This document shows positions 39,847 through 41,719 of a stretch of DNA of 64,000 nucleotides, in pieces. Origin of the DNA: Eledone cirrhosa (taxonomy: Eukaryota); NCBI GenBank assembly GCA_964016885.1, contig OZ024743.1, positions 119,970,001-120,034,000 on the forward strand. Direction: 5' to 3'. Position 1 is the first letter of the stretch. The number at the start of each line of letters is the position of its first letter. Made by a program: the position numbers and the translations under genes. The notes beneath the pieces were generated by a model. It saw nothing but the letters and a program-made list of their open reading frames with translations. It made no database searches and was not told the DNA's origin.

Positions 39847-41719
39847 GTGTGTGTGTGTGTTTGCATATACTGTATATATAGTAACATTTTTATACATGCT
39901 GGTGTGTTTGTGCGTATATGTGTGTTGGTGAAAAGGTGTCGGTCAATAAATTTTTCCCTAACCAAATTGATGTGCATGAATGAGTAAGGAATATCTTATG
40001 TTGTTTTTTATATAATTTACCTCCTACATTACAGGTCACTCACAAATATTGCCACTATAAACCACAGTATTATTTCTGATAAGAAATTGATTCATTCTAA
40101 ATTGGGGAGAATAAATTCATTTTTCATGTCTCGCGGCACAAGGAAAAGGTGAAATCCATAACCGGTGTATTATCAATTGATAAATATAAGCATTTGCTTA
40201 TCAAATACACGCAAACAACTACTAGGATTTTGTAATGGGCTCAACTGCTTGAACAGAAGTCGAATTCAACTCTGCCCTTTTATTATAGAGCGTTGGACAA
40301 TAATCCTTGATAGACTTTTTGAAAATAAGACGTGGTGGTCAGGAGTCGAATGCTGAGCAATCAGTTGTTCGATCAACTGAATGCCTATCTCATTAAATTA
40401 ATGTATAATTGTCTGAGAATTCCATAGACATATCTCCCCGTAACACCAGGGTGATTCGGTCTGTTACTAAGCTGGACCTTTCAATTACATGTACAGTTCA
40501 TCTGACGGGCTTGCACAGTTTTTGTCAATCCAAATTAATTCATTTGGTTTGGGTCAATCCGAAACCATTGACAAAAGACTTGCCCAAGATCTCATACCAA
40601 TAGGATCGAAACCGGAATCTCAACATTGCAAAGTGGGCTCCTTATCCAGTTATGCATGTGTCCATGTTTACAAAGCTGACCTGGGGCTCAACGCCTCAAA
40701 ACAACATCAACATCTGATATACTGTTAGTTGCTTGATCTATCAACGGAGGGTCAACCACATTGACTTACAAAAACTTTGGTACTTACTCCAAACATTAGA
40801 TGATCTCAGGTGCGAGCATATAATTTCTCACTCAAGAACAGAGTCACATATTTGTAGAGGGAAATAAAATATATTGACATGACCTTCAATAGAATAATAT
40901 TGACGTCCGTCGGTTTCGATGATAAATGTTCCAGTTGGTCGATCAACACAACTGACTGCTCATGAAATTAACGTGTATATTGCTAAACATTCGACAGATA
41001 CTTGCACAATTCTTTGGGTGATTCAGCGAAGCTGACTCTTGGAACTGCAGCTACAGTCCGACTGGCGGACTTCCACACAGTTTCCGTCTCCCCAATTTCA
41101 CTTATAAGGCATCATTGCGAAAGAAAACATCTTAATCATTCGGCTATGCTGCACCCACAAGACCTTTAATGTAGACGCTACTATGTAGTTGCTGGATCTG
41201 CAAGAAATAGCAGCATATAATTTCCCTCATATAACAAAGAAACTACCATATAAAATTCAAAAAAAAAAAAAATGGAAAGGGTTATTCTATATATACTCTG
41301 TCTGGAATAGAATACAGATAGTCACAGCTGGAATACGTTTGATTATATCTGTGTGATCAAGAAGTTCCCTATGCAGCTAAGTGGTTCCGAGTTCGTTTTC
41401 ACTGCTTGACACTTGGGATAAGTGTTTTCCACCATATTCCCGGCTAGATTAATGTCTTGTGAGTATAGATAGATAGATTTCTTTATTAGCCACAAGGGCG
41501 CACAAGAAAAGGGGACAATACAAAGATATGCCGGGGATTTTACATACAGTCGTGTAAAAAATATAAAAACAAACAATTACAACAATCGAAATCCCCAATA
41601 GAGGGGAAGCGCCACAAATGGGTTGTTTAATACCCCATCGATAGAACAACCCTCAACTCCAGGAGCGTGTTGTGCAAGTGCTCCTTTCTTCTTTTTTCTC
41701 TCCTCTTCAACCTACAGGC

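Follow-up and report, generated by a model that had tools for sequence, protein, structure and literature searches.

This locus raises the question of which enzyme copies an abundant SINE, and by what signal that enzyme would recognize the SINE RNA. In the window, i.e., the whole 64,000-nucleotide stretch of Eledone cirrhosa DNA that was analysed, three minus-strand copies of a LINE (B, C, and A) lie head to tail with (ATCT)n arrays between them, together with many copies of a SINE of 190 to 230 nt that comes in two forms (I and II). Tandem repeats make up 15,741 of the 64,000 bases. A sequence-only reading had pointed out that LINE A and the SINE end alike, and had proposed that a Tx1-type LINE drives the SINE, either LINE A's own branch or a sibling subfamily. 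The LINE features of the window are as follows.

41489..41499, minus strand: LINE A hairpin GCC-CTTGT-GGC (sequence; minimum-energy and centroid folds)
41477..41488, minus strand: LINE A spacer, 12 nt, with AATAAA inside and ending GAAAT; the layout also occurs in other subfamilies
41464..41476, minus strand: (ATCT)3 after LINE A, tail and/or target microsatellite (sequence)
41477..46745, minus strand: LINE A, two-ORF Tx1-type, assigned to the ATCT clade (ORFs, tree)
about 46448-44830, minus strand: LINE A ORF1, frameshifted, with CCHC knuckle (translation)
about 44605-41720, minus strand: LINE A ORF2, RT domain, in-frame stops (translation, domain search)
46746..46857, minus strand: (ATCT)n array between C and A, i.e., 5' flank of A and 3' flank of C
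46858..46967, minus strand: copy C, ~110-nt 5'-truncated Tx1 end, hairpin GCC-CTGGT-GGC at 46881-46871
46968..47030, minus strand: (ATCT)n array between B and C
47031..51173, minus strand: LINE B, 5'-truncated, decayed, Tx1-type, 80% identical to A, preceded by a (CT)n array

An end motif common to LINE A and the SINE

LINE A terminates on the minus strand in GCC-CTTGT-GGC (41499-41489), a 12-nt spacer (41488-41477), and (ATCT)3. The exact hairpin of the SINE, GGC-CTTGT-GCC, occurs 13 times within the 64-kb window. A direct count against the SINE copy at 3689 gave 9/11 plus 8/12 identical terminal bases and so bore out the 17/23 identity read earlier; the two ends differ by one swapped pair in the 3-bp stem, and both stem differences pair mutually. 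The earlier description of the neighboring copies also agrees with the window sequence: copy B (hairpin 47053-47043, loop CCTGT) and copy C (hairpin 46881-46871, loop CTGGT, 13-nt spacer ending AGAAAC) keep the stem GCC-N5-GGC.

The 3'-terminal sequence common to the SINE and Tx1 ends exceeds chance. With 24 nt scored, shifts of up to 4, and 20,000 shuffles per pairing, the observed score was reached by 0 to 1 of the 20,000 shuffles in 7/8 SINE-LINE pairings and by 6 of 20,000 in the eighth, and 5 to 7 of ~39,800 random genomic 40-mers reached a score of 17. The best Tx1 ends match the SINE at 16-18/24 positions (LINE A itself at 16-17/24), and in one ATT-tailed Tx1 subfamily the end agrees in register with SINE type II at 18/24 positions, with the tail agreeing as well; the ends of CR1 (two types), RTE, R4/Dong-like, and Ingi-like families match at 8-14/24. 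As judged from these ends, the SINE and Tx1-type LINEs finish in one short motif consisting of a 3-bp hairpin, an A-rich spacer, and GAAAY. The common stretch is only ~24 nt, compared with the 35-61 bp given for bivalve SINE/LINE pairs (PMC11481361), which speaks against a Tx1 partnership.

LINE A belongs to a young and abundant Tx1-type family

The LINE A family counts 1,548 candidates in a host genome of 3.0 Gb, the best 40 at 95-100%, and is young and abundant. All 30 of the 30 copies fetched keep the hairpin end, a few with single stem changes. LINE A ORF2 gave an RVT_1 match and a weak zf-RVT match; compared with B, it lacks ~530 nt in the region of the endonuclease. Compared with solved RT structures, it is closest to human L1 ORF2p (E=3e-46; R2, 5e-22); its homologs carry PF03372, PF00078, and PF13966, and among named homologs the LINE protein comes nearest to one of the octopod Argonauta (68%). 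A CCHC motif is visible in the ORF1 translations, whose look-alikes are zf-CCHC/RRM/ZCCHC3-type clusters (score 0.90-0.92). Tx1 elements have an ORF1 with an RNA-binding domain and a CCHC knuckle instead of the vertebrate L1 ORF1. The assignment as Tx1-type draws on an L1-closest ORF2 (APE endonuclease, RT, C-terminal CCHC), the ORF1 type, and the target preference.

Tx1 families typically target microsatellites, as described for Kibi, Koshi, and crocodilian Tx1 elements in (TC)n, (TTC)n, (TTCC)n, and (TTTC)n (PMC4494074). The (ATCT)3 run that had been taken for the tail of LINE A is present. Calling it a tail needs correction, because among 14 A-family copies with the 5' junction in view, 12 also have CTAT-type repeats on the upstream side (a tally by eye) and 2 look 5'-inverted, so that the ATCT "tail" is largely target microsatellite. 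Genome-wide, 10,173 matches of Tx1 ends run into ATCTATCT, some of them counted twice. Copies of both Tx1 clades described below form head-to-tail arrays via insertion into one another's tails (window 46746-47030; L198, L199, L202, L204, L209, L213).

The SINE and its copies

The SINE is short, non-coding, and interspersed, with 5'-truncated copies and target duplications. Representative copies in the window are listed here.

3529..3712, plus strand: short type I SINE, GGC-CTTGT-GCC at 3689-3699, then spacer and ATTA
18947..19162, minus strand: longer type II SINE, with an additional internal hairpin upstream of the terminal one
33099..33287, minus strand: type I SINE with a flanking duplication starting at ATTAT
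36687..36759, minus strand: 5'-truncated type II SINE, its end among the best matches (18/24) to ATT-tailed Tx1

The head shows motifs that by eye resemble the A- and B-box consensus, and ARAGORN and Rfam gave no tRNA match. Genome-wide, 203,054 SINE ends run into ATTA and 6 into ATCTATCT. The SINE itself carries hardly any tail, and its duplications start at ATTA directly after the spacer. Type I copies are 94% identical to the column majority, with the nearest neighbor at 95%, and type II is older; nearest neighbors are mostly at 91-98% among Tx1 copies and at 97% in older CR1. SINE and Tx1 copy ages overlap.

The earlier label of "Meta-domain SINE" found no support. Two Meta motifs from published bivalve alignments, allowing up to 3 mismatches, gave 7 and 5 matches in the window, below chance, and 0 inside SINE copies. 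MetaSINEs, in which a 66-bp Meta domain stands straight after the tRNA-derived head, share with the present SINE a central body, occurrence in a mollusc, and what in the latter are a putative tRNA-type head and a putative LINE-derived tail, and differ in these two motifs, which the present SINE lacks (Nishihara 2016, PMC4824008). Comparison of the SINE body with bivalve CORE bodies gave no match by eye. A Nin/Inv-type relation of the body is what we take to be a possible lead. More distant SINEs with the same body motif and without the terminal hairpin lie at 5347-5517 (plus strand) and 51775-51939 (minus strand); SINE clusters, tandem and nested, occupy 2679-3377, 6327-6999, and 27283-27756; and oppositely oriented copies at 6213-6401 produced spurious sub-threshold matches to miRNA models.

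An ATT-tailed sister clade of LINE A

The LINE hairpin followed directly by ATTATT gave 5,608 pattern matches genome-wide (control, 0). A Tx1-type ORF2 lies upstream in 11/15 such loci, the remainder being 3 short fragments and 1 weak unrelated match; in longer stretches, ORF matches were found in 18/20 and ORF1 in 13/20. These ATT-tailed LINEs are ~70% identical to LINE A in ORF2. A tail-blind pattern for one subfamily returned 1,740 matches, and among the first 100 listed, 0 run into ATCT repeats and ~85 begin ATT (by eye). In a tree built from 826 coding columns and 55 copies (56/113 ends had enough ORF2, and 1 was dropped for gaps), a split with support 1.0 sets 33 ATT copies apart from 22 ATCT copies. 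Tree and flanks together define a pair of Tx1 sister clades, with (ATCT)n flanks in one and (ATT)n flanks in the other; a reservation is that most ATT-Tx1 loci come from one contig. The clades are 70% identical over coding DNA; over the final 24 nt the figure is 86%, and over the UTR before them 56%. The 86% is inflated by the choice of copies by end motif and perhaps also by the AATAAA signal. The fallback of the sequence-only reading, that the actual partner is a sibling subfamily, gains support from this two-ORF Tx1 sister clade with the same end, as does a Tx1-type partner in general from the end match, the sister clade, and the retention of the hairpin across subfamilies.

Insertion sites, duplications, and nesting

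Target duplications were scored at callable junctions only (196/207 SINE, 55/80 ATT-Tx1, and 47/70 CR1 ends). Duplications of at least 11 nt flank 90/196 SINEs (control, 38/588; median, 16), 10/55 ATT-Tx1 copies (control, 6/165; median, 17), with 12 more within ATT arrays, and 3/47 CR1 copies (control, 3/141). The SINE rate differs from that of CR1 (p=8e-8) and exceeds that of ATT-Tx1 (p=1.6e-4), which counts against an ATT-Tx1 partner. The test alone also fails to separate ATT-Tx1 from CR1 (p=0.13); many LINE junctions are miscalled or lie in ATT arrays. Of the ATT-Tx1 loci, 20 were picked for their unique flanks; miscalled junctions are numerous among long copies, those of CR1 included. No duplication accompanies long LINE copies, L283 and L294 among them. 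Among insertions of at most 30 nt, duplications accompany 7/16 Tx1 and 11/37 SINE copies. L287, L289, L291, L295, L296, and L299 are very short insertions of hairpin, spacer, and tail only, with clean 17-18-bp duplications; their SINE counterparts are L101, L103, L105, and L109, and all of these examples were in part selected by pattern.

An ATTAT-type motif stands in the 5' flank of 129/196 SINEs, 31/55 ATT-Tx1 copies, and 11/47 CR1 copies (background, 413/4000); SINE and Tx1 do not differ (p=0.21), whereas Tx1 and CR1 do (p=0.001). By their junctions, the SINE and ATT-Tx1 both use ATTAT as insertion site, and their duplications measure ~16-17 bp where they can be scored. A SINE target profile from 17 sites was left out of account, being displaced by one base and dominated by the tails of SINEs lying upstream. 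Shared target preference, which we count in favor of the ATT-Tx1 partner, is also the argument by which SINEU was paired with Tx1-Mar (PMC4494074).

The SINE and ATT-Tx1 also nest in each other. A SINE begins within 80 nt after the tail in 18/78 ATT-Tx1, 1/70 CR1, and 0/38 ATCT-Tx1 copies (background, 25/3000). The contrast between ATT-Tx1 and CR1 (p=4e-5), to which age or region may contribute, holds with older CR1 alone (0/30, p=0.003; young CR1, 1/39). The tail alone does not explain it, because the ATT runs of CR1 are equally long (median 15 nt versus 12 nt in ATT-Tx1). At SINE sites, ATT runs have a median of 3 nt, and this much shorter run compared with Tx1 sites argues against the ATT-Tx1 partner. 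Many full-length ATT-Tx1 copies lie directly behind a SINE tail.

A candidate mechanism for SINE mobilization

We consider it fairly probable that the ATT-tailed clade, sister to that of LINE A, copies the SINE; its ORF2p is predicted to bind the hairpin, nick ATTAT, and prime there. The SINE end would descend from a Tx1 3' end, and Pol III would transcribe the SINE. ATT-clade ORF2p would most likely bind this hairpin at the end of either its own or the SINE RNA and, in line with known non-LTR biology, would nick the DNA at ATTAT; the terminal ATT repeat of the RNA would then pair with the nicked target, where reverse transcription could be primed, and a second cut would follow ~16-17 bp away from the first nick. 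Stringent recognition of the stem-loop is what we infer from sequence conservation.

Is the hairpin read by the enzyme?

With the same ATT-clade Tx1 partner, the terminal repeat or the GAAAY-ATT junction might be all that the enzyme needs; the hairpin would then be inherited or serve 3'-end formation. The folding data lend themselves to this explanation. For the terminal 70 nt of LINE and SINE, folding energies do not improve on those of shuffled sequence (z -0.7 to +0.9), and the sole strong score, -2.67, comes from the internal hairpin of SINE type II. The terminal hairpin is in the best fold of LINE A, where it is found in both the minimum-energy and centroid folds, of one SINE copy, and of two ATT-clade copies; it is missing from the best fold of B, C, and a truncated SINE type II copy. 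A weak 3-bp stem of this kind, energetically unremarkable, speaks for a hairpin that goes unread and also against the ATT-Tx1 partner itself. AATAAA lies downstream of the hairpin in the LINEs, as a role in 3'-end formation would have it, and mammalian L1 is described as relaxed (PMC3472496).

Against an unread hairpin, the SINE has no AATAAA, yet neither of its subfamilies has given up the hairpin, not even type I, in which the upstream sequence is lost. The hairpin is kept across Tx1 subfamilies, where its absence would have undermined the proposed partnership. A protein-led survey of 108 Tx1 C-termini, 9 of them without a callable end, showed that neighboring copies end A-ACC-loop-GGT-T, with one G-U form in L212. 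The outer-pair variant (G-C to A-U) gave 10,202 pattern matches genome-wide, and among the first 100 listed, 95 are compensated (A...U). Two of the three stem pairs thus have a compensated form, the middle one swapped from C-G to G-C between LINE and SINE and the outer one changed from G-C to A-U between LINE subfamilies, and this change of two different stem pairs with compensation speaks against a hairpin that is not read. The compensated pairs probably represent one event each, so the covariation, which concerns two pairs of a 3-bp stem, is only suggestive. No Tx1 subfamily surveyed carries the SINE stem polarity, a point against the ATT-Tx1 partner; only 5/51 double stem variants are of that type, and 21/51 are T...A pairs, as expected from decay. 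On balance, an unread hairpin is unlikely.

In 80 metagenome loci with distant ORF2 relatives, identical at 25-44% in the best segment, no hairpin of this kind stands ahead of a 3' AATAAA; they are too distant to inform. One ATT-clade subfamily carries a 5' UTR hairpin with SINE polarity and loop ~55 nt before ORF1 (L201:7880-7915, plus strand; L204; L207:6954; L072), followed by an A-rich spacer and an ATT run and matching the SINE end at 16-18/24. The same place in other subfamilies and in LINE A holds strong hairpins of different sequence. The 5' UTR before the SINE-like hairpin showed no relation to the SINE, scoring under most of 500 shuffles.

Other Tx1 subfamilies and other LINEs as partners

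If the endonuclease were loose and pairing between tail and DNA set the landing site, any Tx1 subfamily, LINE A's included, could copy the SINE, and ATCT-clade proteins would place ATT-tailed SINE RNA at ATT sites too. LINE A matches the SINE end about equally well (16-17/24), duplications begin with the tail unit in both clades, and copy ages are similar, all of which fit. We nevertheless regard this as improbable, since non-LTR target choice is set mainly by the endonuclease according to PMC4494074, a SINE follows 0/38 ATCT-clade tails, and ATCT-clade copies sit in long (CTAT)n arrays. The original suggestion that LINE A's own branch drives the SINE finds no support either: LINE A targets (CTAT)n, SINE ends are almost never found in ATCT repeats (6 into ATCTATCT versus 203,054 into ATTA), and with 0/38 nested, the ATCT branch is probably not the driver.

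The partner might instead be a LINE family outside the sample whose 3' end matches more closely, the Tx1 likeness then being due to shared tail ancestry or convergence. There is room for one: the LINE census covered a sample of 80 evenly spaced 10-kb stretches (800 kb) plus targeted loci of a 3.0-Gb genome, 47 recently active LINE families are listed for a related genome (PMC13282606), and a LINE with the SINE's four upstream bases would hide among the 203,054 SINE ends. In the 800 kb, 116 sites match the SINE end at 17/24 or better and 101 of them have a SINE body; the other 15, read by eye, are truncated or decayed SINE ends, 4 Tx1 3' ends, 1 Tx1 5' UTR hairpin, and chance matches, with 0 new LINE ends. 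The LINE 3' ends reaching 17/24 in this sample are Tx1 only. No LINE with the exact SINE end was found: 258 SINE-type ends have other upstream bases, no recurring family stands out among 100 listed, and the 30 loci read are SINE remnants. A closer match in an RTE or R4 family, which would have told against Tx1, did not appear among the sampled CR1, RTE, R4/Dong-like, and Ingi-like ends. An unsampled partner family seems to us a slim prospect.

The abundant ATT-tailed CR1, acting via the ATT repeat and its own different stem-loop, is very improbable as the driver, for despite the same tail unit, 8,007 ends, many intact 945-aa ORFs, and the common CR1-type partnership of mollusc SINEs (PMC11481361), its end matches at 9-11/24, its duplications stay at control level (3/47), ATTAT 5' flanks are few, and a SINE follows 0/30 older and 1/39 young tails.

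Young copies of this ATT-tailed CR1 were the main return of the genome RVT_1 search and were set aside as partner on their end, duplications, and rare nesting; L031-L060 are very young, with many open 945-aa ORFs and nearest neighbors 99% identical. A second CR1-type family, with a GGCC-rich end, was rejected for its 9-nt repeat tail and (TA)n flanks. This young family (L131-L160; 11,452 candidates) continues from the 9-nt repeat end into (TA)n at 29/30 loci and is likely a TA-targeting CR1. RTE (ATG)n, R4/Dong-like (TAA)n, Ingi-like (CAA)n, and BovB-like ends do not match the SINE end; RTE, R4/Dong-like, Ingi-like, and BovB-like are names that we assigned by reading translated sequence and do not come from a database. 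Another repeat, which contains inverted segments and ends in ATT followed by (TA)n, was seen in 9 copies (L064, L074, L086, L097, L015, L037, L228, L235).

Relation to known SINE-LINE pairs

SINE-LINE tail sharing is already known; for a SINE driven by Tx1 there is one precedent, and plants and an alga have yielded stringent pairs of the L1 clade. The Tx1 precedent, SINEU/Tx1-Mar of crocodilians, likewise rests on target preference, nesting, and matching ages; its SINEs have snRNA heads and target Mariner, and the pairing as presented there is argued from targets and heads, not from a 3' stem-loop (Kojima 2015, PMC4494074), whereas the present pair has both an end motif and a microsatellite target in common. 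Kibi, Koshi, and crocodilian Tx1 are similar as Tx1-type LINEs inserting into microsatellites (PMC4494074); here the targets are (ATCT)n and (ATT)n, divided between two sister clades with one end motif. LINE1-1_ZM with ZmSINE2/3 and L1-1_CR with SINEX-3_CR (Ohshima, PMC3472496; PMC3747384) resemble our candidates in that an L1-clade LINE and a SINE have in common a 3' hairpin whose loop is conserved and whose stem changes are compensatory, in our pair suggestively so. Those plant and alga pairs have ~50-80 nt in common and poly(A) ends, in contrast to an animal pair with ~24 nt in common and microsatellite-unit ends. Among 58 SINE/LINE pairs surveyed in the same work, only three SINEs with L1-clade tails are given, from plants and an alga, and the survey raised the question of whether the ancestor of the L1 clade already had stringent recognition (PMC3472496; PMC3747384). 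For UnaL2/UnaSINE of the eel, a 3' stem-loop with short terminal repeats was likewise proposed as the recognition signal. UnaL2 is of the L2 clade, and its stringent pairing with UnaSINE is proven by experiment; ours is an L1/Tx1-type candidate pair known from sequence alone. The literature searched yielded no Tx1/SINE pair that combines a covarying hairpin with sister clades differing in target; Repbase, subscription papers, and figure-only alignments lay outside that scope and may record it.

Tentatively, the two clades may reveal a two-part code, in which a tiny hairpin kept by compensation would select the template and a switchable ATT or ATCT tail and target would decide the landing site. 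A SINE with the hairpin and the ATT tail would thereby have reached >200,000 copies, and the ATCT clade, with the same hairpin and no passenger, would be the natural control; the 5' UTR hairpin may be a second binding site. Copying of the SINE by ATT-Tx1 would itself rank among the few animal examples of an L1-like enzyme that chooses its RNA by structure, with ATT-Tx1 as the likely engine of a major SINE expansion. The ancestral stringency of the L1 clade is a question to which an animal Tx1 pair would speak, and a signal of ~24 nt is small enough for exhaustive mutation; sister clades that differ in target while keeping one hairpin would make endonuclease specificity separable from RNA-DNA pairing in target choice. 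In its LINE content, the present genome is similar to Octopus as described in PMC13282606, where SINEs account for 11.6% of the annotated Octopus vulgaris genome.
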